DNA from: Thermoanaerobacterales bacterium
GTDB taxonomy: Bacteria; Bacillota; Thermoanaerobacteria; Thermoanaerobacterales; UBA4877
Assembly (NCBI GenBank): GCA_036752905.1
Contig: DAIORT010000007.1
Location: 27,105-91,104 of the forward strand
Direction of reading: 5' to 3'
Length of the DNA stretch: 64,000 nucleotides
Shown here: piece by piece, positions 13,135 to 56,919 of the stretch
Layout of the letters: every line of letters begins with the position of its first letter
How positions within the stretch are numbered: position 1 is the first letter of the stretch
Position numbers and translations under genes: made by a program
Notes under the pieces: model-generated
The model's input: the letters and a program-made list of their open reading frames with translations, nothing else
Database searches by the model: none
What the model was told of the DNA's origin: nothing

Positions 13135-13192
13135 ACACCCGACTGAAGCATGTTAAAATTAAAGAAATTTAAAACAGATGGAGGAAACACGT

Positions 13193-13924
13193 ATGCAAAT
13201 CGATAAGGTGAAGCGAATATTGACGACGCCGGTCAGCGATGAATTCGCGATGAGCACACCGGAGTTCCGAAACAGGGAATATATCAATATCACCTATAAA
13301 ACGGATTTCGACAAATTGAGAGAGCTTGTTCCGGAGCCGCTGGAGATCGACGAGCCTCTCGTGAAGTTTGAACTGATCAAAATGCCGGACTCGACGGGCC
13401 TGGGGGATTATCTGGAGAGCGGGCAGGTTATACCGGTTTCCTATAACGGCGTGCCCGGAGAGTTCTCCCTCGGGATGTATCTCAACAATTTCCCGGCTAT
13501 CGTGACAGGGCGAGAGTTCTCGACCTATCCAAAAAAATATGGCAATCCGTCGCTCTATGTGGATTCAGACACACTCGTCGGAAAGCTGTCCTACGGAACG
13601 CTGGACGTCGCCATCGCAACCATGCGCTATAAGTACAACAAAATTACACCGGAAGAGGCAGGAAAGATTATCGGCACGCCGCAGTACATGCTCAAAATCA
13701 TCCGCGATACCGATATGAAGTTGCTCGCTTGCAAGATGACGGTCTCCACGATCACCAAGTACGAAATTCTGGAGGCTTGGAGATCCCCGGCTAGGCTCCA
13801 GCTTTTTGAACATGTAAACGCACCGCTCGCAGACCTGCCGGTTAAACAGGTCGTGGACGCCACTCACATCATCGCGAACCTCATGCTCGGACGCCCGTCG
13901 GTCGTATACGATTATCTGAAATAA
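13193..13924 (+). CDS. adc: Acetoacetate decarboxylase
   Basis: The protein is near-colinear with my memory of Clostridium acetobutylicum Adc. Shared blocks are NREYxNIxYxTD, VPEPLEIDEPLV.FE, GQxIPVSxNGV, YLxNxPAIxxGRExSxYPKK, LxVDSDTLVG, YMLKII, RLQLFxHxxAPLxDLPVK and VxYDYLK. Start ATG 13193 has GGAGGA 7 nt upstream. Confidence 0.9.
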   Translation: MQIDKVKRILTTPVSDEFAMSTPEFRNREYINITYKTDFDKLRELVPEPLEIDEPLVKFELIKMPDSTGLGDYLESGQVIPVSYNGVPGEFSLGMYLNNFPAIVTGREFSTYPKKYGNPSLYVDSDTLVGKLSYGTLDVAIATMRYKYNKITPEEAGKIIGTPQYMLKIIRDTDMKLLACKMTVSTITKYEILEAWRSPARLQLFEHVNAPLADLPVKQVVDATHIIANLMLGRPSVVYDYLK

Positions 13925-15375: not shown

Positions 15376-15407
15376 ATATAAAAAGCCGCAACCATGTAGG
15401 TTGCGGC
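15376..15407 (-). terminator. Riboswitch expression-platform terminator
   Basis: On the minus strand GCCGCAACCtacatGGTTGCGGC is followed by TTTTTATAT. Confidence 0.65.
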
Positions 15408-15411
15408 GGAA

Positions 15412-15500
15412 ACCCGCATTCCCTACGCCAGTATTAACTGAACAGGTTCAAGGGGTCCACAGTATTCTGCGGTCTCAGCTTTTAGCTCCCCCAGCGGACA
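15412..15500 (-). promoter_or_regulatory. TPP (THI-box) riboswitch
   Basis: The minus strand reads CTGGGGGAGCTAAAAGCTGAGACCGCAGAATACTGTGGACCCCTTGAACCTGTTCAGTTAATACTGGCGTAGGGAA. It contains the conserved CUGAGA, ACCUGA-type and GCGUAGGGAA cores. Confidence 0.9.
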
Positions 15501-15732
15501 CAGTCTCTTAAATTGTACATATACATTATATACCAAACACATAGGTCATTCAACTAAGGATTTTGTTTTTGAAGCACAGATATCTCCTTTTGCTCTATTG
15601 TGGCCTTTTTTGTCCCTTCTGTCAAATAATGGTGCAAGCTGATATCCTCGCATGCCGCCACATAATCCGATAAACTTGCGCTACCAGACCCCAGCGGTAC
15701 TAACCTCGGCAATAGCCATTGCCCATCACCTC

Positions 15733-16923
15733 TTAGGAATCTTTAAATGTTCCAAATACCTTAAGATCCTTATCACGCATCATAACCTGTCCTTTCGCTA
15801 TGACTGAATCAATTGATAAGTCCTGTTCATTTAGCAATACTATATCGGCATCCAAACCCTTTTCTATCCTTCCTTTATTCTTTAGCTTCAGCATATCGGC
15901 AGGATTTGAGGTTATTACCTTTATGGCCGTCTCCAGCGGCACGCCGTCCGTTAAAACGGCATCCTTCACTTCTCCATACAACGATTTAGCTTTTCCCATC
16001 TTTAATCCTATAGTCTCTTTCTTCTCATTGAATATCGGCATACTTCCCTGACCGTCTGAGGAAAATGTGATTCTACTCTCATCTACGCCTTGATCTAAAC
16101 ATATTTTTAGAGCCTTGCTGCACTTCGTCTCTCCTTCTTCCCAAAACACTGGGTCGGAGCTTGTGGTAAAGTCTATATGTCCGCCTTCTTTAGCATATTT
16201 TATTGCTTCTTTAAAAAGGTAGGGATTTCTGTTTGTGTGGGTAGGCAGTAACTGTGTGAATGGCACCTCTGTCTCTTTAACAACCTTCCAGATAAGGTCA
16301 AGCATCCCTTTGCCGTCCCCTACATGAACATTCACAATGCCTGCTTTACCCGAAAGCATGCCCGCTACCCGTGCATCTGCCGCTAATCTTTTGAATTCAT
16401 CAACTGTAGGCTGGGAGGAGCGGTGATCGGAAATAGCGATCTCGCCTATCCCTATGACCTTGTCAATGGCTATGATATCTTTCATAGCCTCTCCCGTAAT
16501 CGTAACCACGGGAACATGATAGGAGCCGGTATATATGTAGCTTGTTATTCCTTCCTCTTCAAGCCCCCTGGCCTTAGCTAATAGAGACAGTACGTCCCTG
16601 GCTATGCCATCCGTTCCCAGGCATCCTACCACCGTAGTGACACCCGCAATGATGAGATCTTCTAATTTCACTTCCGGGGTCCTCGTTTTAAAACCGCCTT
16701 CACCGCCACCGCCCAGAATGTGCTCATGGGAATCTATAAAACCGGGAGTCAAGACCTTGTTCGCACCATCTATGATCTCGGTATCTATACAGCCTAAGCC
16801 CTCAAGCGAAAGGTCATCGCCTATGGCTCCAATTTTATCGCCGATTATCATTACATCTTTTTTACCTATATACTGCGGACTGTATACATTGGCATCCTTT
16901 ATCAATTTTATCATATCATTCAC
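15733..16923 (-). CDS. iadA: Isoaspartyl dipeptidase (beta-aspartyl peptidase)
   Basis: GFIDSHEHILGGGGEGGFKTRTPE and the downstream amidohydrolase blocks are characteristic of IadA. Confidence 0.85.
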   Translation of the reverse strand: MNDMIKLIKDANVYSPQYIGKKDVMIIGDKIGAIGDDLSLEGLGCIDTEIIDGANKVLTPGFIDSHEHILGGGGEGGFKTRTPEVKLEDLIIAGVTTVVGCLGTDGIARDVLSLLAKARGLEEEGITSYIYTGSYHVPVVTITGEAMKDIIAIDKVIGIGEIAISDHRSSQPTVDEFKRLAADARVAGMLSGKAGIVNVHVGDGKGMLDLIWKVVKETEVPFTQLLPTHTNRNPYLFKEAIKYAKEGGHIDFTTSSDPVFWEEGETKCSKALKICLDQGVDESRITFSSDGQGSMPIFNEKKETIGLKMGKAKSLYGEVKDAVLTDGVPLETAIKVITSNPADMLKLKNKGRIEKGLDADIVLLNEQDLSIDSVIAKGQVMMRDKDLKVFGTFKDS

Positions 16924-16960
16924 TCCGTCTTCTTTATAGTCTTACTCACTACATAATTAT

Positions 16961-18700
16961 TTAAGCAAAACCTATCATTGTTGCAATGATAATAAATGCA
17001 GTGCCCATTATCAAGAAAAATCCCTGCATCTTAACATGCCATTTTGCCCACTTAAGCCAATCTATCCTGGCAACTGCAAGAACACCTATAAGGCTGGCCG
17101 ATGTGGGGGATATGGCGTCTATAAAACCGGAACCAAGCTGGTACGCAAGGCAGGCTATCTGCCGTGATACGCCAACAATATCCGCAAGCGGTGCCATTAT
17201 AGGCATTGTCAGCGCGGCCTGGCCAGAATTAGATGTAACAAAGAAATCAAAAATACTTTGGAAATAATACATAAATACGCCTGTTACCATTGAAGGCAAT
17301 CCTTTAAGTGCTTGCCCAAAACCATGAAGCACGGTATTTAAAACCGTAGGCGTCGTAGGATCGGAACCACCGAGAACAAGGAGAATTCCCTTTGCCATAC
17401 CTACCACAATAGCCGTGGGTGCCAAATCAGCTGCACCCTTGCCAAATGATTCCGCTATATCATTCCACGTCATATCATTGAGCTTAAAGATCGCACCTAT
17501 AATTCCCGAAACAAGACCCATTACAAAAAACTGAGATGCTATCTCAGGAATATAATACTGCCGCGCAACCACTCCCCAAATAATCCATATAACACCCAGA
17601 AGCATGGTCAGGAGTATCAACACATGCCCTATACTCAACTTGCCGCTGGCATCACTATCATTTGCTTCCATAGATTCGATAAAATGCTTGTCCTCTTCAT
17701 GAGTAACAGATTTCTCCGGATTTTGCTTTATCTTTTTAGCATAAAAATAAACATAAGCTGCACTTGCTCCGGTGATCACGACCCACATAATCAGCCTGAA
17801 CTTTGCCCCGGATAATACCGGTATGCCGGCTATACCTTGAGCTATAGCTATCCCAAAAGGATTCATCCAAGAGCTGGCATTGCCAACCTGGGAAGCAACA
17901 AATGTCACGCATATGGCAGTTATTGAATCATACCCCAACGCAATTACAAAAGGAATCATTATCATAGCCAACGGTATGCATTCTTCTGACATGCCAAAAA
18001 CAGCTCCGCCCAAGGAAAATATAAAAAACAGTATGGGAATAGCCATTTCCTGGAAGCCGCCCATATGAGCTACAGCTGCATGAATCCCGGCATCTATGGC
18101 ACCGGTCTTCATTATTACTCCGAAGGCCCCTCCTACTACAAGAAGCAAAGCAACAATACCGACTGCGGCACCATACTTGTCACCTGTCACAAGGCCCTCA
18201 AACACATAGTTTAATACTCCGAATCCCCCGGTATCGTCGGTGCCCCATAACTTTGCATGTTTATAGACCTTATGGCTTGTGTCATATACAGATTCATTAA
18301 ATTGTTTATATATCACATCGTCGGTAAGACCAAGTGAATCCAGTTTTTCTTGATCCCAAGTCTTTGGATCGGTTTCTAGAAAACTACTAAGTTTATCTCC
18401 ATCAATCCCAAGCTCATCCATTTTTGCCTCATCACTACTTAGGCTTTTTAAATTTACCTGAAGTTTGTCCATATCAAGATCATATTTATACCTAAATGTC
18501 TCCGGCATAAGGACAGTCCTGGTATCTGTCTGCCCGTCCGCCTTCTTATACTCAATATCGTGAGTACTATAAAGCCCTGCGGGAACAACAAAAGTCATCA
18601 TCCAAAGTACAAACACTACAAAAAAAATAATTATGTATGTATGCGGTGTTTTGATTTTTGTCAGGTCCCTTTTACCCTGCGAACCATTATTTTTATTCAT
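16961..18700 (-). CDS. YfcC/DcuC-type (C4-dicarboxylate anaerobic carrier family) transporter
   Basis: The 579-aa protein is polytopic with a long extracytoplasmic loop after TM1. A YfcC-like gene is commonly paired with iadA. Confidence 0.75.
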   Translation of the reverse strand: MNKNNGSQGKRDLTKIKTPHTYIIIFFVVFVLWMMTFVVPAGLYSTHDIEYKKADGQTDTRTVLMPETFRYKYDLDMDKLQVNLKSLSSDEAKMDELGIDGDKLSSFLETDPKTWDQEKLDSLGLTDDVIYKQFNESVYDTSHKVYKHAKLWGTDDTGGFGVLNYVFEGLVTGDKYGAAVGIVALLLVVGGAFGVIMKTGAIDAGIHAAVAHMGGFQEMAIPILFFIFSLGGAVFGMSEECIPLAMIMIPFVIALGYDSITAICVTFVASQVGNASSWMNPFGIAIAQGIAGIPVLSGAKFRLIMWVVITGASAAYVYFYAKKIKQNPEKSVTHEEDKHFIESMEANDSDASGKLSIGHVLILLTMLLGVIWIIWGVVARQYYIPEIASQFFVMGLVSGIIGAIFKLNDMTWNDIAESFGKGAADLAPTAIVVGMAKGILLVLGGSDPTTPTVLNTVLHGFGQALKGLPSMVTGVFMYYFQSIFDFFVTSNSGQAALTMPIMAPLADIVGVSRQIACLAYQLGSGFIDAISPTSASLIGVLAVARIDWLKWAKWHVKMQGFFLIMGTAFIIIATMIGFA

Positions 18701-18950: not shown

Positions 18951-20348
18951 TTAATCTATTTTTTCGTTAATGGAACGTTTTAATTTATTGTAAAGAGTAG
19001 CACGAGAGATTCCAAGCATCTTAGCAGCCTTCGTCTTATTACCCCCGCAGCTTTTTATCGCAGCCTTGATTTGTTCTGCAGTAAGCTCTGAGTACCCGGG
19101 TATGACGGCCTGCCTTACCGGATTATAAACATTATCTGGGTGATAATCAAAGGAATCAAAAGGTACCAGGTTCTCTATCTTAAGTCTGTGCCCGTCGGAG
19201 CGGTCTATTGAGGCTTCCAATATATTCTGCAATTCACGTATGTTTCCCGGCCAATGATAATCCTTGAGTCTCGTTATTACTTCCGCATCAATATCGTGAA
19301 TATTAGTGCCCAAACGTCGGTTAAGCCTGGCCACCAGTGTTGATATCAGTTCCGGTATATCGCTCTTTCGATCCCTAAGCGGCGGTACATGGATATGAAA
19401 AACATTTAAGCGGTAATACAAATCCAACCGGAATTTCCCATCGCTTACCATCTGCCGAAGGGGAACATTTGTTGCTGTTATTATACGGGCATCAATGGAA
19501 ATTTCATAGGTACCGCCTACCCTGGTTACTTCATGATCCTGGAGGACACGCAGTAATTTTGGCTGCGTGGTGAGCGGCAGTTGGCCGATTTCATCTAAAA
19601 AAAGGCTTCCCTTATCAGCCAGCTCAAATTTGCCCGGTTTCCCGTTCTTGCTTGCCCCGGTAAATGCCCCTGATTCGTAACCAAAGAGTTCGGACTCCGC
19701 CAGGGATTCAGGTATTGCCGAACAGTTAACCCTAATAAAACGGTTGTCCTTCCTTACGCTCAAACCATGTATGGCATTGGCTACCAGTTCTTTACCACTG
19801 CCACTCTCTCCTTCTATGAGTACATTTGAGTTGTTCTTGGCCGCCAGCCGTATCTCCTCTTTGAGGGTTTTTATACACTCACTTCTGCCAGTGATTTGAT
19901 CTATGGAGTATTTCTCCATTTCCAAATCCTTTATATATTTTTGGGCAGTTTTAAGCTGACCAGAAATGTTCTCCACCTTTTTTGAAAGTTCCATGGCTAC
20001 CCGCTGCTCATTGAGGAAGGTTAATACCATTGCTCCAAGAAGCTTGTGATCCTCTCCGAAAAGAGGATAGTAATTGGCATAAACAACACCCCCTGTGTCA
20101 GGTGTCATCAGTGGCTGGCCAAACAACGGTTTCTTTGTACGCAGAACCTCATCAAAGTAAGAGCCAGGTATCATATGATAAGTAAAAAGTTTGTGAAAAA
20201 TAATATCTGATGACTTGATGCCGGTCATTTCCATCCAGTATGGACTAACATACAGGTAGTGTCCTGTAGTATCGACAATTGCGATGGATAACTTATCGGC
20301 ACTGAAACATGCGGAAATAATCTCCGGATTCAGGTTATTTTCCATCAT
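18951..20348 (-). CDS. Sigma-54-dependent transcriptional activator (PAS sensor, AAA+ domain, Fis-type HTH)
   Basis: Walker A GESGSGKE is present, along with the sigma-54 contact loop ESELFGYESGAFTGA, an RLNV block and the C-terminal HTH NKTKAAKMLGISRATLYNKLK. The N-terminal roughly 130 aa is PAS-like. Confidence 0.9.
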   Translation of the reverse strand: MMENNLNPEIISACFSADKLSIAIVDTTGHYLYVSPYWMEMTGIKSSDIIFHKLFTYHMIPGSYFDEVLRTKKPLFGQPLMTPDTGGVVYANYYPLFGEDHKLLGAMVLTFLNEQRVAMELSKKVENISGQLKTAQKYIKDLEMEKYSIDQITGRSECIKTLKEEIRLAAKNNSNVLIEGESGSGKELVANAIHGLSVRKDNRFIRVNCSAIPESLAESELFGYESGAFTGASKNGKPGKFELADKGSLFLDEIGQLPLTTQPKLLRVLQDHEVTRVGGTYEISIDARIITATNVPLRQMVSDGKFRLDLYYRLNVFHIHVPPLRDRKSDIPELISTLVARLNRRLGTNIHDIDAEVITRLKDYHWPGNIRELQNILEASIDRSDGHRLKIENLVPFDSFDYHPDNVYNPVRQAVIPGYSELTAEQIKAAIKSCGGNKTKAAKMLGISRATLYNKLKRSINEKID

Positions 20349-20390: not shown

Positions 20391-20452
20391 GTGTCTAATG
20401 GTAGACAATATTTATACGATTATTTTGAGTCTATACAACTCTTTATACAATA
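20391..20452 (+). promoter_or_regulatory. Candidate upstream activator sequences (UAS) for the sigma-54 activator
   Basis: GTGTCTAATGGTAGACAATATTTATAC and TATACAACTCTTTATACAATA lie 40-100 bp upstream of the -24/-12 promoter. Both recur upstream of the second sigma-54 promoter at 57884-57932. Confidence 0.55.
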
Positions 20453-20492
20453 GTTTACCGTACTATTCACCACTTTTCAAGCATTTTCGACT

Positions 20493-20508
20493 TGGCATAT
20501 AAATTGCT
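20493..20508 (+). promoter_or_regulatory. Sigma-54 (-24/-12) promoter
   Basis: TGGCATATAAATTGCT matches the consensus TGGCAC-N5-TTGCW with correct spacing. It lies 84 nt upstream of ATG 20592 and is divergent from an activator gene. Confidence 0.8.
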
Positions 20509-20591
20509 TATATATTAGGTGCAGCAGTAAGGGCAAATAAATTTTTTCTAGCTGTAAAACTATCTTAAATACTTTAAAGGAGTGATTTGAA

Positions 20592-21368
20592 ATGAAGTTA
20601 GTAGATCTAAGTTGTACATGGACACCGGATTTACCGGTCGAGCCAAAGGAATCAATCCCGAAGATGATCTATTGGGATCATAAAAGCAAGGTATCTATTG
20701 ACTCGTATCTTGGTACATTCCCTGGGCTAAAGGAAGAAGACCTGCCGGACGGCGAGGCTTGGGCAATTGAAGGAATGCAGACCGGGACTCATACCGGCAC
20801 ACACATGGACGCTCCATATCATTTTGCTTCAACCATGAACAATGGAGAACGTGCCTGGACAATTGATGAAGTTCCTCTGGATTGGTGCATGGGAGACGGA
20901 GTAGTAATCGATGCCACAGACAGACCCGATGGCTATGTACTAACTGCTAAAGATCTTGACGAGTACTTTAAGAAAATAAATTACACTCTAAAACCTGGCG
21001 ATGTAGTTTTACTTCATACAACAGCTCAAACGCAGTGGGGAAATGAAAAATACCTGGTAACAGGCTGCGGTGTTGGCAGAGAAGGAACCTTATGGCTATT
21101 AAATCATGGTGTACATGCAGTCGGGACCGACGCTTGGAGCTGGGATGCACCCCTGCCACTTGTAGCTAAACAATATGCGAAAGATAAAGATCCGTCCATC
21201 ATCTGGGAAGGACATAAAGCAGGCAGAGAGAAAGCCTATGTTCAGATGGAAAAATTGCAACATCTTGAAAAACTTCCGCACTATGGATTCACTGTTATCG
21301 CTTTCCCTATAAAAATCAAAGCTGCCAGTGCTGGATGGGTTCGCCCCGTGGCAATATTTAACGATTAG
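20592..21368 (+). CDS. Cyclase-family metal-dependent hydrolase (kynurenine formamidase / putative cyclase fold)
   Basis: The HxGTHxDxPxH motif is present as HTGTHMDAPYHF. Length is 258 aa and the RBS is AAAGGAG. Confidence 0.8.
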   Translation: MKLVDLSCTWTPDLPVEPKESIPKMIYWDHKSKVSIDSYLGTFPGLKEEDLPDGEAWAIEGMQTGTHTGTHMDAPYHFASTMNNGERAWTIDEVPLDWCMGDGVVIDATDRPDGYVLTAKDLDEYFKKINYTLKPGDVVLLHTTAQTQWGNEKYLVTGCGVGREGTLWLLNHGVHAVGTDAWSWDAPLPLVAKQYAKDKDPSIIWEGHKAGREKAYVQMEKLQHLEKLPHYGFTVIAFPIKIKAASAGWVRPVAIFND

Positions 21369-21383
21369 AGGGGGAGAATAATT

Positions 21384-22652
21384 ATGGCTGAGAATCAAGA
21401 GGGTAAATTTTATTATGGTTGGTATGTTGTTGTTGTTGCATTTGTATTGTTGGCATTTGTCGGCGCGCCTGGTATTTCCATGTCTGGCCTGCCGGTTGTG
21501 TCTATTGTAAAAGATTTTAATGTAAGTGTCACCAATGTAATGCTTATGGGTGCATTAAGTATGATGGGTGCTATGGTAGGCACTCTCTTTGCTGGCAAAG
21601 TTTTTATGCGTTTTGGTCTACGTAAGACTGTCTCCTGTGGGCTTATTTTAAGCGGAACATTTTGGATGATTATTTCGACCGTAAAGAACTTTAAGTTTAT
21701 GATTGTTCTAGCTTTCTTAGCAGGTGTTATCGGTACATTTACAACTACCCTCCCTGCTTCCATTGTGATAAACAACTGGTTCGGCCCTAAGCTTAGGGGA
21801 AAAGCAATGGGTATAACAATGATCGGTCTCAGTGCTGGTGCGGTTGTACTCAGTCCTATTGTAGCAAATATCATCACTTCTGCAACATGGAGAGGAGCAT
21901 ACCGGCTATATGGAATTTTAGCCTGGGTAATGATTCCGTTTGTACTATTAACGTTCTATGATACACCCGCTGCAAAGAGCATAAAACGCCAGGGAGACGT
22001 ACCGGGGGAAAAGGCTGCAGAAAAAGCTGCAGGTGTAGACCCGGCAGGTATGACGGCAGGTGAAGCTCTGCACACTCCTATATTTTGGACATTAGTTGTT
22101 GCCCTGTTTATTATCAATGGTTTGGGCGCAGCATGGAACGGCAACGGCCCTACCTTCCTTACCACTATAGGTTATACTCCGGTAAAGGCATCATTCCTTG
22201 TATCATTATGTTCTTTAGCTGCTATTATAGCTAAGGTATTATATGGAATATACAATGACATAAATGGCTCAAGAAAAACATTTAACCTATTCCTTATGCC
22301 AGTAATAGCTGCAAGTATTTGTCTTATACTTTCACCTAAGATGCCGGCTCTGGCCTATGCGGCAGCAATACTGTATGGTCTTTCTTTTCCAAATGCGACC
22401 GTTGGTTCCCCGCTTATTACTGGTGAGCTGTTCGGGCCAAAGAACTATAGCATATTGGTAGGCTATACACAATTTGTAGCCTCTTTAGGCTCGGCTATTT
22501 TCCCAATGATTGTTTCATCAATATATGGAGCAACCGGTGATTACGTTTATTCGTGGGTTTCTGTATTAGTACTTTCATTATTAGCTTTAGTATTAATCAA
22601 TCTAACTTATGTTGCCAAGAAAAATTATATTTCCAAAAAAAGTACCATTTAG
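21384..22652 (+). CDS. MFS transporter (oxalate/formate-antiporter-like subfamily)
   Basis: There are 12 predicted TM segments with a central loop. The RBS is AGGGGGAG. Confidence 0.8.
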   Translation: MAENQEGKFYYGWYVVVVAFVLLAFVGAPGISMSGLPVVSIVKDFNVSVTNVMLMGALSMMGAMVGTLFAGKVFMRFGLRKTVSCGLILSGTFWMIISTVKNFKFMIVLAFLAGVIGTFTTTLPASIVINNWFGPKLRGKAMGITMIGLSAGAVVLSPIVANIITSATWRGAYRLYGILAWVMIPFVLLTFYDTPAAKSIKRQGDVPGEKAAEKAAGVDPAGMTAGEALHTPIFWTLVVALFIINGLGAAWNGNGPTFLTTIGYTPVKASFLVSLCSLAAIIAKVLYGIYNDINGSRKTFNLFLMPVIAASICLILSPKMPALAYAAAILYGLSFPNATVGSPLITGELFGPKNYSILVGYTQFVASLGSAIFPMIVSSIYGATGDYVYSWVSVLVLSLLALVLINLTYVAKKNYISKKSTI

Positions 22653-22741
22653 AATGGCTGCTTAGATATAAAAAAAAGTACCAAGTACTTGTTCTAAAAA
22701 ACAAGGTACGATGGCAACATAATTATGGAGGTATATCAGCT

Positions 22742-23659
22742 TTGGATATCGTCCAACCTTTTTTAGAACATGTCAAGGGGAATACCTGGTGTATAGTAAC
22801 AAAACGTTCACGTATCCCTTTATTCAAACTGGAAGGCGGCAGGGTAGTCCTCATTGACTCCGGTATTTCTACAACGGATCGTGGAGGGATCTTTTCCCTG
22901 CTGGCACAAAATGCCCTTACCGTAGCTGCAGTCTTGACCAGCCATGCCCATGTTGATCATATAGGTAATCACAAGGCCCTGCAGAAAGAGCAGGGATCAA
23001 AATTATATATGACGCTGTTTGATGCGGCGATTAGTGAAAATCCCTTGTATGCGCAGGCCTATTTCTATGGAATTAACTATCGAAATGTTATTAAGTATAC
23101 GGCCACTTATCTTTGTCATGCCGACTACTTAATCAGGCCGGAGGATGAGTTCATTGATATTGAAGGTGCCCGGTTTAAAATATTACGGCTTCCCGGACAT
23201 ACGGCAGAACATCTTGGATTCGTCACTCCTGATTCGGTAGCCTATTTGGCTGATGCTCTTTTAAGCGATCATGTGCTGGAATCAGTACGAATTCCATACT
23301 GCATAAGCTGTGCTTTGGATCTTGATACCAAAAACCGCATTGGCAAAATGAAATATGATCGTTATATTGTAGCCCACAACGGAGTTTATGAAAATATCAG
23401 TACTCTTGTTAAACGGAACATAGATAATATACTCAGTAAAGTAGATATAATCTACAAAATAGCAGATCATTATATGTCAATGGAACAGATTTTAGCTAAA
23501 ACATGCGCAGCCTTGGGCATACGTACGGATAGCATTTATAAAATCAGTTCTTCAGAACAAAGCGTCAGAGTCTACATGGAATATCTGATTGAAGAAGGCC
23601 GGCTGGTACAGCGGGCCAACGACGGAATTATCGAGTATATTCGAACTGACTGCACTTAA
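22742..23659 (+). CDS. MBL-fold metallo-hydrolase
   Basis: The HxHxDH motif is present as SHAHVDHIG, followed by LPGHTAEH. I chose in-frame TTG 22742 (GGAGG 10 nt upstream). The track start at 22553 overlaps the MFS gene by 100 nt. Confidence 0.7.
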   Translation: MDIVQPFLEHVKGNTWCIVTKRSRIPLFKLEGGRVVLIDSGISTTDRGGIFSLLAQNALTVAAVLTSHAHVDHIGNHKALQKEQGSKLYMTLFDAAISENPLYAQAYFYGINYRNVIKYTATYLCHADYLIRPEDEFIDIEGARFKILRLPGHTAEHLGFVTPDSVAYLADALLSDHVLESVRIPYCISCALDLDTKNRIGKMKYDRYIVAHNGVYENISTLVKRNIDNILSKVDIIYKIADHYMSMEQILAKTCAALGIRTDSIYKISSSEQSVRVYMEYLIEEGRLVQRANDGIIEYIRTDCT

Positions 23660-23702
23660 CAATCAATTTATAAATAAACTTTATGATACAAGGAGGATTA
23701 TT

Positions 23703-24566
23703 ATGGACAAGGTTTTTATTACTGCTGCATTAACAGGAACCTCAATAAGCCGGGAAGCCGCACCAACTGTTCCAATATTTCCTGAGGAAATCGCCGAGCA
23801 GGTTGTAGATGTAGCAAAGGCAGGAGCTGCCATGGCACATATCCATGTAAGAGATGACAAAGGATGGCCGACTATAGACGTTGAAAAGTTTACAAAAACA
23901 TTTGAAGCCATCCAGCTGGCTACAAAGGCGGCAGGGGTTGATATAATTGTAAATCTCACCACCTCCGGATCCGTTAAACTGGAGAAGAATGAGACACGTT
24001 TGGCCCACGTTAAGAAACTGCGCCCCGATATGTGCTCTTTTGACTCAGGTACATTCAACTGGAATTACGGCGGTGTTTTCGTAAATGCTCCCGACTTTCT
24101 TGAGGATCTATCCAAATGTGTAATTGAAAACAATGTAAAACCTGAGTTTGAAATCTTTGACAACGGCATGCTTGGAAATGCAATTTATTGCATAAATAAA
24201 TTTAATATACCCCAGCCATGTCATTTCCAGTTCGTACTGGGCGTGGGCGGTGCTGCCAGCGCTACCACACGCAATCTGGTATTCCTGCAGGAAATGCTGC
24301 CGAAGGGATCAACCTGGTCGGTAACCGGCATAGGCAAAGCACATATACCGATGATGCTCGCTGGTTTATCATTAGGCTGCAATGGTCTTCGTGTAGGATT
24401 GGAAGACAATGTCTATATGTCAAAGGGTGTAAAAGCCACTAACGTCAAGCTGGTAGAGCGCGCCGCAGAGTTGATTGAACTGACCGGCCATGAGGTTGCT
24501 ACTACGGACGAGACCAGAGAAATATTAGGTCTAAAGCGTCATTCTCTTGAAGAATATCATGCATAA
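23703..24566 (+). CDS. Beta-keto acid cleavage enzyme (BKACE/DUF849 family; 3-keto-5-aminohexanoate cleavage enzyme-like)
   Basis: MDKVFITAALTGT...AAMAHIHVRDDKG is the BKACE N-terminus, including the Zn-binding HxH. Start ATG 23703 has AGGAGG upstream. Confidence 0.85.
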   Translation: MDKVFITAALTGTSISREAAPTVPIFPEEIAEQVVDVAKAGAAMAHIHVRDDKGWPTIDVEKFTKTFEAIQLATKAAGVDIIVNLTTSGSVKLEKNETRLAHVKKLRPDMCSFDSGTFNWNYGGVFVNAPDFLEDLSKCVIENNVKPEFEIFDNGMLGNAIYCINKFNIPQPCHFQFVLGVGGAASATTRNLVFLQEMLPKGSTWSVTGIGKAHIPMMLAGLSLGCNGLRVGLEDNVYMSKGVKATNVKLVERAAELIELTGHEVATTDETREILGLKRHSLEEYHA

Positions 24567-24677
24567 AAAATGACACTTTAAAATTTTAATATTTAAGCGC
24601 CCTGTCACAACTATTGGGAGGGCGCATCAGCAACTCATTATGATTTTAATAATGCTTATAACAAGGAGGAAATGTAT

Positions 24678-25901
24678 ATGCGAGAAGTAGTATTTGTGGA
24701 TGGAGCTCGTTCCGCCTTCTGTAACTTAGGCGGCGGATTTAGAGATCTGTCTTCTACAGAAATCGCTGGTCACGTTTTAAAGGGTCTTATAGAACGGACT
24801 GGTATATTAGAGCGCAGTAAAGTAGACGGCTTGTTCTGCGGAAATGCGCTGCGGGACATGCGTTGCAATGATATAGCCCGTGATGCGGCACTCAGGGGCG
24901 GATTACCACCGGAGACTGAAGCGCACTATGTAGAAATGCAGTGCGGCTCGGCAATAACATGTGTAAATCACGCTGCAGCTATGATTGGTTTAGGCTATGC
25001 AGACGTACTTTTAGTTGGCGGCATGGAATCTTATTCGACAATGAACATCGATTTTTCCATGAACGACAGACCATATAGACTTGTTCCTCCCATTCCATTG
25101 GCACCCCACCTGGCACCTCAAAAAAATGAGGATATAACCATGATCCAGGTTAGTGACGAAATGGCAGAAAACTGGGATATATCCAGAGAACAGGCAGATG
25201 AATATGCAGCCAGAAGTCAGCAGAGATTGGCTCAGGCGTACAAAAAGGGTATAACCGGTGATGAAATCATCCCGATTACCATACCGGCAACACCTGATTC
25301 TCCTGAAGTTGTTATAGACAAAGATGAATTCCCACGTCCTAACACCACACCGGAGATCCTGGCAAAACTGCGTCCTGTTAATAAAGGTGGAATAACTACG
25401 GCAGGTAATGCTTCCGGTCAGAATGACGGCGCCGCTTTTCTGTTGATGATGTCGGCAGACAAGGCAAAAGAATTGGGATACAAGCCTATTGCCCGCTGGA
25501 TTATCGGAGCAGATATAGGCGTTCGTCCTGCACACATGGGTATCGGCCCTGCTTTTTCAAATCTTAAGGCTATGAAATTGGCCGGTTTGCAGTTATCCGA
25601 TCTTGAAGTAATTGAATGTAATGAGGCATTTGCTGCTCAGAACCTGTCCGTAATCAAAGAGATGGAGTCCCGGACCGGTGAAAAGATTGATCAGTCTAAA
25701 TGGAATCCTAACGGAGGGGCTGTCGCCATTGGACACCCTAACGGTGCTTCCGGTGCTCGTGTCGCTATGTTTGCAATGCGTCAATTAGAGCAAACCGGCG
25801 GACGGTATGGTTTGTTTTCATCCTGTTGCGGCGGCGGACACGGAACCACCACCATCATTGAAAACCTGAGACGTGAAAAAGGAGGAAACAAGAATGCGTG
25901 A
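24678..25901 (+). CDS. Thiolase (acetyl-CoA C-acyltransferase family), catalytic residues intact
   Basis: The nucleophile Cys is in VEMQCGSA, the His in NGGAVAIGHPNGASGAR and the C-terminal Cys in SSCCGGGHG. The RBS is GGAGG. Confidence 0.85.
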   Translation: MREVVFVDGARSAFCNLGGGFRDLSSTEIAGHVLKGLIERTGILERSKVDGLFCGNALRDMRCNDIARDAALRGGLPPETEAHYVEMQCGSAITCVNHAAAMIGLGYADVLLVGGMESYSTMNIDFSMNDRPYRLVPPIPLAPHLAPQKNEDITMIQVSDEMAENWDISREQADEYAARSQQRLAQAYKKGITGDEIIPITIPATPDSPEVVIDKDEFPRPNTTPEILAKLRPVNKGGITTAGNASGQNDGAAFLLMMSADKAKELGYKPIARWIIGADIGVRPAHMGIGPAFSNLKAMKLAGLQLSDLEVIECNEAFAAQNLSVIKEMESRTGEKIDQSKWNPNGGAVAIGHPNGASGARVAMFAMRQLEQTGGRYGLFSSCCGGGHGTTTIIENLRREKGGNKNA

Positions 25902-27093
25902 TGTTGTTATCGTAGACGGAGCACGTTCCGCTTTTACAAAATTCGGAGGATCACTTAAGGCTTATGCATCAGTGGATATCGCAACACTGGTGGTTAATGA
26001 TCTGTTAAAGCGCACCGGTATACTGGACAAGGGTAAAGTAGACAGCCTTATGGCCGGCTGTGCCCTCGGAGATATGAAAACAAAAGACATAGCAAGATAC
26101 ATCGTTTTACAATCAAAATTGCCGATGGAAACCTCTGGCACTTTTGTCGAAATGCAAGGCGGTTCGGCCATTGCAGGGCTCAATCATGCCGCATGGAAAA
26201 TTAAAGCCGGCATGTCTGAGGTTGCTATAGTCGGTGGCATGGAGTCTTACTCCACCTTTACGGCTAAATTCCCAATGTGCCGTCCACAGTATAAATTTAT
26301 CGCTCCATATGCCTTAAAACCAGAGCATACTCCTAATAAAGAGCGTGACCTCGACAGGGCATCTTTGGATGATAAGATGGCCGCTGAATGGGGGATCACC
26401 CGTGAGCAGGCCGATACGTATGCAGCCAGGAGCCAAGAACGCCTAGCCCAAGCTTATAAGAAGGGAATTACCGGAGATGAAATCGTCCCGATTGTAATCC
26501 CTGCCACACGCAAGGCACCGGAAATTGTTATAAATAAAGATGATTCTCCATGTCCTGACATAACGGCTGAGGAACTTTCAAAACTGCAACCGGTAAACCA
26601 GAGCGGCATTACTACAGCGGGTAACTCCACCGGTTTGAATGACGGTGCAGCCTTTATGCTGATAATGACTGCTGAGAAAGCACAGGAACTCGGTTATAGG
26701 CCTATAGCCCGTTGGGTAACCGGAGCTCACTGCGGCGTACGTGAAGATTATACAGGCATAGCACCTGCATACTCTAACCTCAAAGCCATAAAGCAAGCCG
26801 GCCTCAAACTGGAGGATATCGACGTGATTGAGTGCAATGAGGTATCTGCTGCAGAGAACCTGGCTGTCATAAGCGAGATGGAAAAACAGACCGGCAAAAA
26901 GATTGATAAAGAAAAATGGAATCCAAACGGAGGTGCTATTGCCATAGGGAACCCTAACGCAGCCTCAGGTGCCCGTATGACCATGTTTGCTATGCGTCAA
27001 CTTGAACAAACATCAGGTAAATATGGCATGGCCTCTACTTGCTGTGCAGGTGGCCAGGGAGCTACTGTAATCATCGAGAATCTCAGACACTAA
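25894..27093 (+). CDS. Thiolase-like paralog lacking the nucleophilic Cys and the catalytic His (probable non-catalytic partner subunit)
   Basis: It is colinear with the upstream thiolase, but reads VEMQGGSA (GGC at 26158-26160) and NGGAIAIGNPNAASGAR (AAC at 26950-26952). Its start overlaps the upstream gene by 8 nt. Confidence 0.8.
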   Translation: MRDVVIVDGARSAFTKFGGSLKAYASVDIATLVVNDLLKRTGILDKGKVDSLMAGCALGDMKTKDIARYIVLQSKLPMETSGTFVEMQGGSAIAGLNHAAWKIKAGMSEVAIVGGMESYSTFTAKFPMCRPQYKFIAPYALKPEHTPNKERDLDRASLDDKMAAEWGITREQADTYAARSQERLAQAYKKGITGDEIVPIVIPATRKAPEIVINKDDSPCPDITAEELSKLQPVNQSGITTAGNSTGLNDGAAFMLIMTAEKAQELGYRPIARWVTGAHCGVREDYTGIAPAYSNLKAIKQAGLKLEDIDVIECNEVSAAENLAVISEMEKQTGKKIDKEKWNPNGGAIAIGNPNAASGARMTMFAMRQLEQTSGKYGMASTCCAGGQGATVIIENLRH

Positions 27094-27122
27094 TATTACT
27101 TGTGAAGAAAGGACGGATTAAC

Positions 27123-27986
27123 ATGGAAATAAAGAAGGTATTTGTAATCGGAGGCGGCGTTATGGGCAGACAGATCGCCCTGAACTCCGCTATATACGGC
27201 TATCAAGTCAAGATCTATGACAAGATTCCCGCAGTATGTGATAAAGTGCAGGCATGGGAAGTTGAGTATCTCGCAGGCCGTATTAAAAAAGGCCGTATGA
27301 CGGAGGACCAGGTCAAGCAGGCCAAGGATCACTTTACTATAGTACGTGATGCACAAGAGGCTGCTGATGCAGATCTGGTCATTGAGGCTGTTGTTGAAAG
27401 ACAAGATGTAAAGGCCGATGTCTTCAAGGAGTTTAGCGGTATCGTACAACCGGATACAATCCTGGCAACAAACTCAAGCTACATGGTTTCTTCCATGTTC
27501 AAGGATTGTGTCTCTCATCCAGAGCGGCTGTTAAACTGCCATTATTATAATCCGGCACTGGTAATGAAATTCGTGGAGGTTGTCCAGGGTGAACATACCA
27601 ATCCCAAGGTAGCGGATGCGGTTATGGAATTCTGTCGCAGCACAGGAAAAGATCCTATTTGTATGAAAAAGGAGCTCCCCGGTTTCGCAGCCAACCGTAT
27701 AGTAAGTGTCATTAATGCCGAGGCACGTTTCCTGGTACAGAATGGATATCTGACATATCAGGAAGTTGATAAAGCATGTGAAGAGGGACTGGGACATCCT
27801 ATGGGGCCCTTCCGTCTTATGGATATGACAGGCATTGATTTATCATACGATCTGATGAAGGCCGGCATGGCTATGGATGGCAAAAAACCGGATTGCTATG
27901 ATATGGTTGAGAAAATGGTTAAAGAAGGAAACCTGGGCCGTAAAACAGGTAAGGGCTTCTATGACTATACAAAAGAAAATAAGTAA
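27123..27986 (+). CDS. 3-hydroxyacyl-CoA dehydrogenase family oxidoreductase (Hbd / L-carnitine-dehydrogenase-like)
   Basis: The Rossmann motif is VFVIGGGVMGRQIA. Also present are ATNSS, the CHYYNPALVMKFVEVV catalytic-His block, ELPGFAANRI and GRKTGKGFYDY. Confidence 0.85.
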   Translation: MEIKKVFVIGGGVMGRQIALNSAIYGYQVKIYDKIPAVCDKVQAWEVEYLAGRIKKGRMTEDQVKQAKDHFTIVRDAQEAADADLVIEAVVERQDVKADVFKEFSGIVQPDTILATNSSYMVSSMFKDCVSHPERLLNCHYYNPALVMKFVEVVQGEHTNPKVADAVMEFCRSTGKDPICMKKELPGFAANRIVSVINAEARFLVQNGYLTYQEVDKACEEGLGHPMGPFRLMDMTGIDLSYDLMKAGMAMDGKKPDCYDMVEKMVKEGNLGRKTGKGFYDYTKENK

Positions 27987-28003: not shown

Positions 28004-28028
28004 CCCGGGCAATAGGCCCGGGTTTTTT
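28004..28028. terminator. Rho-independent terminator (end of the sigma-54 operon; abuts the convergent gene)
   Basis: CCCGGGCaatagGCCCGGG is followed by TTTTTT. Confidence 0.75.
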
Positions 28029-29205
28029 AATCTCCGCTTACAAATTCTCCTATGCGCTTAAACGCTTCCTCTATATTTTTTAGCTGTGTTCCCAGATTGA
28101 TGCGGATATATCCTTCCCCGTTGCCTATAAATTCATTCCCGCTTTCCACCAACACACCTTTCTCCTTTGCAAGACGGTGGGTAAAGGTATCACTGTCCAT
28201 CTTGGTACTTTTTATATTAACCCACAGCAGATAAGAGGATTCCATTTCCATGTAAGAGAGCTGTGGAATATGGGTATCAATATAACGGCAAGCACAGCGG
28301 TAATTCTTTTTTAGGTAGTCTTTAAGTTCCTGTGTATATTCCTCCCCCTCATTGTAACATGCGACCAGTGCAATAATGCCGAATACCGTGGGTGAAGTAA
28401 TAGAATTTTTGGTTAGCCGGTCTCGGAAGGTCTTACGCAAATCATCATTTTCTATTATTGCATAAGAGGTTTTAAGGCCGCCTAAATTATACTGTTTATT
28501 TGGTGAAGACAGCAGAATTACATTGTGGAAAAGGGCTCCGGTCTCAATGGAGGATGTATATGTCCCGTCAAAGATGAGCCCGCTGTGGACCTCATCGGAA
28601 ATGACGATAGTCTCATACTTTTGGCACAGGGAAAGCAACGTATTAAGTTCCTCCCTGCTCCATATCCTTCCGGACGGATTGTGTGGGTTACAGAGCATAT
28701 AAAGCTTTGGCCGATATCTTTTTAACTGTTCTTCCATCTTGTTGAAATCTATATAATAGCGATTGTTTTTCACGATTAATTCATTTTCTATCACCTTTAC
28801 ACCATGGGCCTTAGCCGCCCTTTCAAAAGGCTGATATACCGGTGTACTCAGCATTACATAGTCATCTTTTTTGCAAAATGCCTGTACCGTATAATGAAGT
28901 GTTGAAACCGTGCCATAACACAATGTAAGCCATTCTCTTTTAGGTGATGTGTTATGATGCCGCTTGAAATAATTCATTACTGCTTCATAAAAGTCATCAT
29001 AGACATAGGTGTAGCCAAACACCCCGATATCCACGGCCTGATGCAGCTTATCAAGCAGCTCTTGCGGTGCACGGAAATCCATATCTGCAATCCACATGGG
29101 GATATAGTCATCTATCACCTCGCCGTATTGTTGTTCTATTATTTTTTTATCCCATTTGCGGCACTTCTCTGCAAAGCGGTCGGGGAAAACATCAAAATCA
29201 TTCAT
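28027..29205 (-). CDS. PatB/MalY-type PLP-dependent C-S lyase / class I-II aminotransferase
   Basis: The translation DRFAEKCRKWD...IPMWIADMDFRAP...NPHNPSGRIW...SPNKQYNLGGLK includes the PLP Lys context. Start ATG 29205 has GGGAGGAAGG upstream. Confidence 0.8.
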   Translation of the reverse strand: MNDFDVFPDRFAEKCRKWDKKIIEQQYGEVIDDYIPMWIADMDFRAPQELLDKLHQAVDIGVFGYTYVYDDFYEAVMNYFKRHHNTSPKREWLTLCYGTVSTLHYTVQAFCKKDDYVMLSTPVYQPFERAAKAHGVKVIENELIVKNNRYYIDFNKMEEQLKRYRPKLYMLCNPHNPSGRIWSREELNTLLSLCQKYETIVISDEVHSGLIFDGTYTSSIETGALFHNVILLSSPNKQYNLGGLKTSYAIIENDDLRKTFRDRLTKNSITSPTVFGIIALVACYNEGEEYTQELKDYLKKNYRCACRYIDTHIPQLSYMEMESSYLLWVNIKSTKMDSDTFTHRLAKEKGVLVESGNEFIGNGEGYIRINLGTQLKNIEEAFKRIGEFVSGD

Positions 29206-30262
29206 GTTCCTTCCTCCCGTGTGCAAAATCAACGGCAGACAGGAAAAATTCCTTATCCAGGCTTTTTATCAATTGTGTCATCAGCAATACAGCATTGTCC
29301 GCATCCAAAGAGCTGCCGATAGACCATGGGCTATGGCCGTACCGCAGCGGGATACCGATAACGGCACACACCGCGCCTTCGCGGGTCAGATGGGCCTGGC
29401 CGCCATCCGTACCGCCGTTACTGAACATATCCTGCTGCAGTGTTATAGCATTCTCATCAGCTATCCGCTGAATATGATCCAAAAAACGGGAAGACGGCAC
29501 CATGGTCTTATCATAATGCAAAAGCATTGGGCCGTGCCCTATCTGCCTGTTATTTGTGTGATTCCTTACAAGTTCATTTCTCCAGCAACCGACGTCAAGC
29601 ACAATTACAATGTCCGGTCTTACCTTGAATGCCGATGTTTTACCACCTCTCAGGCCAACCTCTTCGCTGGAGGTACCCACCATATATAGCGCATTGGGAA
29701 GCTTGTCTTTGTCCAGGCCTTTTAATGTCTCCGCCATCACATAGCATCCCATCCTGTCATCCAGGGCCTTGCCAGCAAATGTACCGTCTATACCATAGGC
29801 CTGGCATTCACTGCTGAATGTCACCATGTCACCTACCCTTATGCCGAGCGAATAAACCTGTTCATCGGAAACAGCCCCGATATCGGTTACCAGGTCCTTG
29901 ACATCGCCGTCATCATATACGGAATTTAAAACCCCGGGTATCTTTTGCCCAGACCTCGTCGTGACTCGTACTCCCTGCATAAACTTGGAGAATGTACGAA
30001 CACTTCCAACAGGGATGACATGCAGCATGCCGATCTCGCTGATGCTCCTTACCAGGAAACCCACTTCGTCCATATGGGCACATACCATTACCCGCGGGCC
30101 TCTATCGTCTCCATTCTTATGAAAGATGACAGAACCCAGCCTGTCAAAATCCATTTCATCCGAGAAATCCTTCATCTCGTCTATAAGTATGCCTCTTACC
30201 TCATCCTCATGCGATGCAACTGCATCTGCATCGCTTAACCTCTTTATCAAATCTATATTCAT
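29198..30262 (-). CDS. M42 family metallo-aminopeptidase (FrvX/CelM-like)
   Basis: The translation LSDADAVASHEDEVR...VMVCAHMDEVGFLV...GKALDDRMGC...SSEEVGLRGG matches M42 motifs. Confidence 0.85.
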   Translation of the reverse strand: MNIDLIKRLSDADAVASHEDEVRGILIDEMKDFSDEMDFDRLGSVIFHKNGDDRGPRVMVCAHMDEVGFLVRSISEIGMLHVIPVGSVRTFSKFMQGVRVTTRSGQKIPGVLNSVYDDGDVKDLVTDIGAVSDEQVYSLGIRVGDMVTFSSECQAYGIDGTFAGKALDDRMGCYVMAETLKGLDKDKLPNALYMVGTSSEEVGLRGGKTSAFKVRPDIVIVLDVGCWRNELVRNHTNNRQIGHGPMLLHYDKTMVPSSRFLDHIQRIADENAITLQQDMFSNGGTDGGQAHLTREGAVCAVIGIPLRYGHSPWSIGSSLDADNAVLLMTQLIKSLDKEFFLSAVDFAHGRKEHE

Positions 30263-30269
30263 AAATGGA

Positions 30270-31343
30270 TTACTCCTTATCTGTAATGATTAACTGCTTG
30301 GGTGAGTGGGTGAGTACCGAACGGCCGTCCTCTGTAACAAGCACGTCATCCTCAATCCTTACGCCGCCCAATCCCGGTATATATATGCCCGGCTCTACGG
30401 TAACAACCATACCGGCTAACATCCGCGACTGCTCGGTGGGAGATAGCCGTGGGTCTTCATGATCGCTTATTCCAAGGGAATGACCGAGGTTATGCCCGAA
30501 ATACTCTCCGTATCCGGCTTTTTCTATAACCGAACGGGCCGCACGGTCCACATCGCAAAAACGCTCGCCGGCACGTATAGCCTCAATTCCCTTTTGCTGA
30601 GCCTCCCTGACGGTTTCATAGACCTCTGCAAGTTTCCGGCCAGGCCGCTTGCCCACTGCAAAGCTACGCGTGATATCGGAACAGTACTGGCCCACCTTCG
30701 CGCCAAAATCCATGGTAACAAGATCACCGATCTCGATACGCTTTGTACCCGCCTTGGCATGCGGCATAGCACCTCTAATGCCACTGGCGACTATAGTGTC
30801 AAAAGACTCCTTCATCGCACCGTTTTTCTTCATAAAGTAAACCAGCTCGTTTGCAACCTCATCCTCCTGCATACCCGGCCTTACAAAATCCAGTATGTGC
30901 AAATAGGCCTGGTCAGCAATTTCACAAGCCGACCGTATCTTTTCAATCTCCCTCTCATCCTTTACCTCCCGGATAGGATTGATATTAACGGAAACCAACG
31001 AAGCGTGAAGCTTGCCTTTTAAGGTAATATACCGGTCATATGAAATATCATCCCCCTCAACACCTATGGTATGTATATCCTCCCTATCTATAATTTCATT
31101 TACGATCATATCATAGGTGTTTTCGGCAGTCATAAGTAAAACATGTCCTTCCCGGTTGTTTTGACGAACCTGCTCATAATAGCGCGAATCCACAATGACA
31201 TATTTCGCTTGCTGTGTAACCAACACATATCCTGAGTGGCTGTATAGGCCGGAAAGATAAAACTTATTATGATAAGATGTACACAGCATTGCCTGTACAT
31301 TAGATTCCGATAAAATCTTATGGCACTTTTCTAATCTGTTCAT
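30270..31343 (-). CDS. M24B Xaa-Pro aminopeptidase/dipeptidase
   Basis: The pita-bread fold motifs are [47 protein letters not shown]. Confidence 0.85.
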
Positions 31344-54397: not shown

Positions 54398-54412
54398 CTG
54401 CATACTTCGTTA

Positions 54413-54508: not shown

Positions 54509-54530
54509 ATAAATATTTTATTTATTTTAT

Positions 54531-54919: not shown

Positions 54920-54945
54920 AATATGTATTGCCCCCTTCCGGGGGC
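54920..54945 (-). terminator. Candidate terminator after the enoate-reductase-like gene
   Basis: On the minus strand GCCCCCggaaGGGGGC is followed by AATACATATT, a weak U-tract. Confidence 0.45.
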
Positions 54946-56899: not shown

Positions 56900-56919
56900 G
56901 ATACTTTTGCTCCTCTCTA

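Follow-up and report, generated by a model that had tools for sequence, protein, structure and literature searches.

Do two sigma-54 promoters that lie 37 kb apart on a contig of a Thermoanaerobacterales bacterium answer to one activator? The stretch of DNA analyzed here, 64,000 nt in length and referred to below as the window, carries promoter P1 ahead of a seven-gene operon that begins with a cyclase-family hydrolase gene (operon 1, 20592–27986, plus strand), and promoter P2 ahead of a two-gene operon that encodes an EthD-like protein and an ene-reductase (operon 2, 54959–57732, minus strand). An initial annotation had pointed out that the two promoters share upstream boxes, had taken these boxes to be the sites of the activator encoded at 18951–20348, and had proposed that the two operons are parts of one pathway. 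Both promoters and their common boxes were located where that annotation had placed them. On comparison with related loci, we consider it probable that the boxes are upstream activating sequences (UAS) of this activator, which would switch on both operons of one pathway.

Two sigma-54 promoters with shared upstream boxes

Scanning of both strands of the window for TGGCAY-N5-TTGCW returned two matches, TGGCATATAAATTGCT at 20493 (plus strand) and TGGCACGCAAATTGCT at 57821 (minus strand), where 0.25 were expected. The −24/−12 element of P1, TGGCATATAAATTGC, occupies 20493–20507 on the plus strand and is spelled TGGCAT-ATAAA-TTGC; that of P2, TGGCACGCAAATTGC, occupies 57821–57807 on the minus strand and is spelled TGGCAC-GCAAA-TTGC. 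At both promoters the GG and GC doublets of TGGCAC-N5-TTGCW lie one helical turn apart. The two elements are intergenic and gene-facing, and the start codons follow at a short distance (for P1 an ATG at 20592, ~85 bp downstream; for P2 an ATG at 57732, ~75 bp downstream). Looser −24/−12 matches elsewhere in the window are intragenic, and their frequency is not above chance.

The distal box of P1, GTGTCTAATGGTAGACAATATTTATAC (20391–20417, plus strand), contains the core TGTCTA-N4-TAGACA (20392–20407) followed by TATACG. This core, which begins 101 bp upstream of TGGCA, is an inverted repeat of the TGT-N10-ACA type with perfect symmetry. The proximal box, TATACAACTCTTTATACAATA (20432–20452, plus strand), has TATACA twice in direct orientation at a distance of 12 bp, so that the order at P1 is palindrome, TATACG, gap and two TATACA hexamers. 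At P2, the distal box GTGTTTAATGGTAGACAGTGTTTGTAC (57906–57932, minus strand) has the core TGTTTA-N4-TAGACA at 57931–57916, a TGT-N10-ACA repeat like that of P1 and 110 bp upstream of TGGCA; the GT2/TPR gene that lies upstream has its stop codon (57925–57927) within this box, and ACAACTTTATACAATA follows directly after it on the minus strand. The proximal sites of P2 (57885–57910, minus strand) comprise a second exact TGT-N10-ACA, TGTACAACTTTATACA (57910–57895, at −89 from TGGCA), which overlaps the 16-nt palindrome TATACAATATTGTATA (57900–57885). The string that the initial annotation quoted for P2 as reaching 57884 is 41 nt long and ends at 57892; an end at 57884 takes in the second half of TATACAATATTGTATA. 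TGT-N10-ACA repeats are present at P1 (−101) and at P2 (−110 and −89), within the ~80–250 bp upstream of the −24 element that are expected for this class of site.

Each promoter has two to three further hexamers after its inverted repeat, at 10–12-bp spacing, and with the distal box included, the P2 array contains five hexamers at spacings of 10, 11, 10 and 10 bp. Taken together with the order of palindrome and hexamers at P1, this indicates that the distal and proximal boxes are best read as one array of related T(A/G)(T/G)ACA half-sites on one helix face. The earlier description, a distal box, then a proximal box, then the −24/−12 element, is accurate in that the boxes precede the −24/−12 element at both promoters, but a palindrome plus an array of related hexamers describes the arrangement better.

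The resemblance between the two upstream regions exceeds what chance would give. A recount of the distal boxes returned the same 23 matches in 27 positions as had been reported. The 12-mer TAATGGTAGACA has exact matches only at the two boxes (64 kb, both strands), and local alignment of the P1 and P2 upstream regions scored 19, the maximum among 2000 shuffles being 16. The proximal motif ACAACT-N0-2-TTATACA, likewise claimed to be shared, occurs in the window at the two promoters only (shuffle mean, 0.02). Given the unique 12-mer and an alignment above shuffles, the boxes are not common AT-rich words within the window.

The shared words might instead be sigma-70 elements, with TAGACA as a −35-like and TACAAT as a −10-like hexamer of tandem housekeeping promoters. 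The P2 boxes do contain TAGACA-17-TACAAT (10 of 12 positions) directed toward operon 2, consensus matches in the P2 region exceed the shuffled mean, and TTGTCT-16-CATAAT, which faces the activator gene, is read on the minus strand within the distal box of P1. However, the operon strand of P1 has no equivalent pair, and shuffled sequence yields such matches about as often as the P1 region does. Sigma-70 elements would also leave unexplained the palindromic symmetry, the conservation of TGTYTA in the upstream half and the link to activator orthologs described below, and we regard this reading as very unlikely. At P1, moreover, both functions are compatible as autoregulation: because the palindrome coincides in part with what is likely the activator gene’s sigma-70 promoter, autorepression by the activator is probable.

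The sigma-70-like sequence inside the P2 array spans 57893–57921 (minus strand) and may be a basal housekeeping promoter facing operon 2.

The activator encoded at 18951–20348

The gene at 18951–20348 (minus strand) encodes a sigma-54 enhancer-binding protein (EBP) of 465 residues with the Pfam domains Sigma54_activat, AAA_lid_14 and HTH_8. Its AAA+ domain matches PF00158 (Sigma54_activat) at 3.4e-67, with the Walker A sequence GESGSGKE at residues 180–187 and GAFTGA at residue 227. The C-terminus is an HTH (helix-turn-helix) domain of the Fis type (PF02954, 2.7e-14, residues 425–458), and the N-terminus is a weak PAS-like sensor. Both Pfam and tblastn with the AAA+ domain identify this as the sole sigma-54 activator gene in the window, in agreement with the initial annotation. 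A terminator lies 3′ of the gene, followed by a separate DcuC–amidohydrolase unit.

Among the NCBIfam equivalogs, PrdR comes closest to the protein with 389 bits (cut-off 795), and the protein is far under all named cut-offs. Its ortholog group is rare: five sequences have at least 67% identity, after which identity falls below 50%. A homolog search in which 8000 candidates were scored gave relatives at 94%, 72% and 68% identity, the next being below 50% among the matches listed. The ortholog on contigs L006/L007 (contigs from related loci are designated by L numbers) was not among these matches and was found through gene context, at a locus reached from homologs of the EthD-like protein. The HTH segment CGGNKTKAAKMLGISRATLYNK is kept across the ortholog group and differs in ~47%-identical homologs.

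On contig L030 (10480–10645), a paralogous activator with 46% identity precedes genes for a cyclase-family protein and an amino-acid permease. This cyclase-family unit has the sigma-54 promoter CTGGCACAGAAATTGCT, and 135 bp upstream of that promoter is a TGTACA-rich inverted repeat, TGTACACATGTG-N10-CACATGTGTACA. The occurrence of the TGTACA repeat before a cyclase-family promoter makes related half-sites seem to be a property of a wider activator family devoted to cyclase-family hydrolases.

The boxes accompany orthologs of the activator

The boxes are kept upstream of sigma-54 promoters at every activator ortholog examined (94–96% identity in L001 and L027, 72% in L003, 68% in L005 and 72% in L006/L007). 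L001/L002 and L003 have the same divergent activator/cyclase arrangement as the window, and the intergenic regions of L001 and L003 retain the palindrome, hexamers and promoter, with differing spacers; L005 retains the palindrome within the 100 bp available. TGT-N10-ACA is kept in L001, L005, L006_PE and L006_Pc, and in L003 the site reads TGC-N10-ACA and is joined by a second exact one. Hexamer pairs related to the P1 proximal box are found in L003 (TGTACAAACGTATACA) and L006 (TATACAACTTTTATACA). When the genome collection was scanned with GTGYYYAWTGKTAGACARTRTTT, the sole match was the L003 contig, from a Thermoanaerobacterales metagenome-assembled genome, and a metagenome scan with the activator sensor domain returned one further near-identical contig along with the L003 contig. 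No RNA runs were listed as carrying the locus; 20 runs turned up, which are of metagenomic DNA, one being of unstated type.

A weight matrix built solely from two sites of other species (L003_P1 and L006_PE) ranks 20391 (plus strand) first and 57932 (minus strand) second among ~128,000 positions of the window, at 28.6 and 22.3 bits, with the next match at 14.3. A second matrix, built from five sites and applied at a threshold of at least 12 bits, found matches confined to loci with an activator ortholog. It detected a site outside its training set before the second L006 sigma-54 promoter (24.6 bits) and had no match in L008–L013, L025 or L026, where the genes lie in AraC-type or other contexts.

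Gene order in relatives bears on the second part of the question, whether the two operons belong together. In L006/L007, the activator gene is followed, divergently, by genes for the EthD-like protein, ene-reductase, cyclase, major facilitator superfamily (MFS) transporter, metallo-β-lactamase (MBL)-fold hydrolase, BKACE, thiolase and thiolase. Sigma-54 promoters precede the EthD-like gene and the cyclase gene in this cluster, each with related boxes. The window’s two operons are therefore one cluster elsewhere, under an orthologous activator. The genes of both operons are divergent neighbors beside an AraC-type regulator gene in L008/L009 and L010; clusters of the same genes under this regulator have neither boxes nor sigma-54 promoters. 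The EthD-like gene lies beside genes for BKACE, 3-hydroxyacyl-coenzyme A (CoA) dehydrogenase (3HCDH), thiolase or CoA-transferase in L012/L013, L025 and L026, and is accompanied by the ene-reductase gene in L025 and L026.

Collectively, ortholog conservation, the other-species matrix and the absence of boxes from the AraC clusters support the original proposal that the boxes are UAS of this activator, while the contiguous L006/L007 cluster and the divergent neighbors in L008–L010 support the assignment of both operons to one predicted pathway. From the shared array and the single-cluster relatives, the regulatory logic is a known one, that of an apparently ordinary two-operon sigma-54 regulon.

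Because the arrangement in relatives shows that the two units formerly belonged to one cluster, the two promoter regions may share ancestry, and their similarity might be a functionless remnant of common descent through a duplicated or translocated promoter cassette. We give this reading hardly any credence. The similarity is limited to blocks (the distal box, the hexamers, TTTTCARG and the −24/−12 element) with an unalignable spacer between them, and these blocks persist across lineages whose activators are only 68–72% identical. Unconstrained intergenic DNA should be randomized at this degree of activator divergence.

It is also conceivable that a protein other than the neighboring activator binds the boxes: a paralogous EBP whose gene lies beyond the window, or else a repressor or global regulator by which both promoters are gated. 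The genome beyond the 64 kb could encode such a binder, as the collection scan matched only the L003 contig, and the homolog search, which missed the L006 ortholog among its 8000 scored candidates, possibly missed paralogs as well. Yet the boxes travel with activator orthologs in all lineages examined and are lost under the AraC regulator, and in L006 one activator gene adjoins both boxed promoters. By eye, the palindrome is unlike the cre and Rex consensus sequences. The position, TGT-N10-ACA symmetry and multiplicity of the sites are typical of bacterial EBP sites (PMC6615313). Since the boxes co-occur with this activator, we judge a different regulator to be unlikely.

Several observations nonetheless weigh against the assignment of the boxes to this activator. 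The two proximal hexamers stand 4 to 6 bp apart, a variation not usual in sites for rigid dimers; the site itself is imperfect in some lineages, L003 having TGC-N10-ACA; and the TGT-N10-ACA of L006_Pc sits 30 bp nearer its promoter. Part of the P2 array, as noted above, is readable as the sigma-70-like promoter TAGACA-17-TACAAT. The comparison covers only three or four diverged lineages, and a paralogous activator or further regulon members may lie outside the window. Within the species, comparison of P2 is uninformative, the ten contigs being almost identical.

Across those ten contigs (L015–L024), from different samples, the P2 region differs at no more than 3 of 233 bases. The P1 region and the activator vary between strains, with 94–96% protein identity and several intergenic substitutions, and one of the samples with uniform P2 also contains the divergent P1 type (L001/L027).

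Comparison with clostridial EBP regulons

In Clostridiales, 15 EBP groups use TGT-N10-12-ACA, and their targets mostly have several UAS sites, ~100–250 bp upstream (Nie, Dong and Yang 2019, PMC6615313). Regulons of this kind are exemplified by PrdR, CrbR and AdhR, with NifA and FhlA as prototypes, and 35% of clostridial EBPs control 2–6 operons (PMC6615313). The system in the window is similar in that its activator combines a PAS-type sensor, an AAA+ domain and a Fis-type HTH domain, several TGT-N10-ACA sites lie ~100 bp upstream of TTGGCAY-N5-TTGCT, the activator gene adjoins one target operon, and the predicted regulon exceeds one operon. It differs in that the target genes are outside the 39 published groups (PMC6615313), variably spaced direct hexamers on the same face extend the site, and the activator falls under every named NCBIfam equivalog cut-off and has a rare ortholog group.

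Promoter-proximal elements and leaders

A further element, TTTTCA(A/G)G, is shared by the two promoters at 20474–20481 (plus strand) and 57839–57832 (minus strand), 11–12 nt upstream of TGGCA. Element and promoter together span 20474–20507 at P1 (plus strand; TTTTCAAG, then TGGCAT-ATAAA-TTGC) and 57807–57839 at P2 (minus strand; TTTTCAGG, then TGGCAC-GCAAA-TTGC). Within the window, TTTTCA[AG]G-N8-10-CTTGGCA occurs at the two promoters only. The element is near-identical in L001, L003 and L006_PE and reads CTCAAAG in L006_Pc. It might serve as an upstream contact of the promoter or bind a protein that bends DNA.

The leaders of five promoters (20518–20591, plus strand, and 57796–57733, minus strand, in the window; 9772–9840 in L003; 7935–8003 and 10924–10994 in L006) have common blocks, about ACGGYRAGGRG ... 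CCTYARGCYGTAAAAYTTAT, and each folds to a similarly shaped hairpin just past the predicted start. We considered a shared RNA leader structure and rejected it, as RNAalifold gave no consensus and the single-fold z scores, from −0.8 to +1.25, are unremarkable. Rfam detected only two thiamine pyrophosphate (TPP) riboswitches in the window, neither of them at P1 or P2.

The two operons and their enzymes

Operon 1 comprises seven genes, all on the plus strand. Its start codons were refined by ortholog lengths together with Shine–Dalgarno sequences; the longest-open-reading-frame starts of four genes (22553–27986) are too far upstream. The genes encode a cyclase-family hydrolase (20592–21368, PF04199), an MFS transporter (21384–22652), an MBL-fold hydrolase (likely TTG start at 22742, end at 23659), a BKACE protein (likely start at 23703, end at 24566; PF05853), two thiolases (24672–25901, and a second with a likely start at 25894 and end at 27093; PF00108/PF02803) and a protein of the 3HCDH family (likely start at 27123, end at 27986; PF02737/PF00725). 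An intrinsic terminator at 28004–28028 (CCCGGGCAATAGGCCCGGG, then TTTTTT; plus strand) closes the operon. L003 has the same gene order.

Operon 2, assigned by Pfam, PDB searches and a structure model, lies on the minus strand and encodes the 270-residue EthD-like protein (56920–57732), with two tandem ferredoxin-like domains, and a 646-residue ene-reductase (54959–56899) with flavin mononucleotide (FMN), iron–sulfur (Fe-S) and flavin adenine dinucleotide (FAD) centers, of the 2,4-dienoyl-CoA/2-naphthoyl-CoA reductase type. A GC-rich hairpin follows at 54930–54945 (minus strand). The closest solved relative of the ene-reductase is the dearomatizing 2-naphthoyl-CoA reductase (2.4e-88).

The EthD-like protein is harder to place. 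Its model (predicted local distance difference test score, pLDDT, 88.8) contains the two ferredoxin-like domains. Searched as a single sequence against the PDB, the protein matched only bacterial chalcone isomerase (phmmer E = 0.012, over 37 residues), and a profile search (E = 0.2) did not strengthen this match. Foldseek aligned the model with chalcone isomerase at template modeling (TM) scores of 0.46–0.50 (E about 2e-5), and chlorite dismutase did equally well. Among ~110 homologs found, few have any Pfam hit and none has a functional name; one of them, P0124, is 77% identical and lies on a short context.

The organization of operon 2 resembles that of chalcone isomerase and enoate reductase from Eubacterium ramulus (PDB 3ZPH, 4C9S and 4D06), also an adjacent pair of a ~270–280-residue double ferredoxin-like protein and a large FMN/Fe-S/FAD ene-reductase. 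The E. ramulus chalcone isomerase is among the best fold matches of the EthD-like protein (TM about 0.5). However, identity between the two is just 11–13%, and chlorite dismutase and anthrone-oxidase-like folds match the EthD-like protein as well as chalcone isomerase does.

No protein of the regulon reached an NCBIfam equivalog cut-off. The BKACE protein scored 176.9 bits against NF053538 (cut-off 430), and its best model, Kce, at 276.8 bits against 382, was also under cut-off.

A predicted pathway resembling phloroglucinol degradation in design

The anaerobic phloroglucinol cluster of Clostridium scatologenes is inducible and comprises PGR, DPGC, TfD, TAL, a thiolase, an MFS transporter and a regulator (PMC10470551). 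In that cluster, DPGC is a cyclase-family hydrolase, TAL a BKACE protein and TfD a member of the 3-hydroxyacyl-CoA-dehydrogenase family (PMC10470551). The genes of the window likewise encode cyclase-family, BKACE, 3HCDH, thiolase and MFS proteins with a dedicated regulator, a match at family level only, and an acetoacetate decarboxylase gene is near the window’s regulon.

There are also differences. The window’s operons are without a phloroglucinol reductase of the short-chain dehydrogenase/reductase (SDR) type, as no adh_short protein is found among the Pfam-scanned open reading frames (those of the two operons, plus most larger ones elsewhere in the window). Unlike TAL of C. scatologenes, the BKACE protein fails the 3,5-dioxohexanoate:acetyl-CoA transferase (triacetate) model and is closer to Kce. 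The window also has, in addition to the families held in common, a conserved MBL-fold hydrolase, the tandem α+β-barrel protein and the Fe-S ene-reductase. We know of no MBL-fold hydrolase step in the published phloroglucinol pathway. The failed reductase and BKACE tests, together with the extra conserved partners, suggest that the substrate is probably different from that of the phloroglucinol pathway.

Because enzyme families are shared but the SDR-reductase and equivalog tests failed, we describe the predicted pathway as phloroglucinol-like in design; that the ene-reductase pair provides the reductive step is a hypothesis. More tentatively, the regulon might encode an undescribed anaerobic pathway of ring reduction and ring cleavage whose substrate would be a cyclic compound, polyphenol-derived or related. 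In such a pathway, the ene-reductase of the 2-naphthoyl-CoA-reductase type and the tandem ferredoxin-like protein would replace the SDR phloroglucinol reductase, the MBL-fold hydrolase would add a step, and the PAS activator would sense the substrate; we hold this as one possibility and not as the favored outcome.

Neighboring genes

The acetoacetate decarboxylase gene (13178–13924, plus strand) lies 5 kb from the activator gene, and L001 has the same neighborhood. Neither a sigma-54 promoter nor a box was found at this gene. It may serve the same pathway, because acetoacetate is the expected product of the BKACE reaction. The unit of a DcuC-family carrier and an amidohydrolase (15733–18700, minus strand) is next to the activator gene in L001 as well and 7 kb away in L003. 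A −24/−12 element was looked for at this unit and none was found; it has an apparent sigma-70-type promoter with an extended −10 (TGGTAAAAT).

Genes for an aminotransferase and an M42 peptidase (28027–31343, minus strand) converge on the end of operon 1, a position kept in L003 (1–2227), and an M24 peptidase gene lies beyond them in the window. One of the two TPP riboswitches (15402–15502, minus strand) precedes a gene for a YuaJ-type thiamine transporter; the other (54401–54515, minus strand) heads a unit of thiM, thiamine-binding, thiE and HAD genes right after operon 2.

Proposed mechanism and implications

Based on what is known of these protein families, from which binding, inducer, looping and autoregulation are inferred, we propose a plausible mechanism for the regulon. 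First, a small-molecule inducer would bind the N-terminal sensor domain of the activator. Activator dimers on the array would then assemble into an active AAA+ ring, which would reach the sigma-54 RNA polymerase at TGGCAY-N5-TTGC through DNA looping, and ATP hydrolysis would open the promoter. Operon 1 (20592–27986) and operon 2 (57732–54959) would in this way be co-induced by one activator. In this lineage, a rearrangement would have split the pathway, each part having retained its own enhancer and promoter.

The activator and its promoters are a candidate ligand-responsive pair that could be used for inducer finding. The regulation itself is textbook, and the main value of the finding lies in linking uncharacterized enzymes into one predicted pathway: the shared enhancer and the clustering would put the EthD-like/ene-reductase pair, which is widespread and unannotated, in a pathway with the cyclase, BKACE, thiolase and dehydrogenase genes. 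This would provide a testable handle on an uncharacterized anaerobic catabolic route in bacteria of fermentation and gut habitats.

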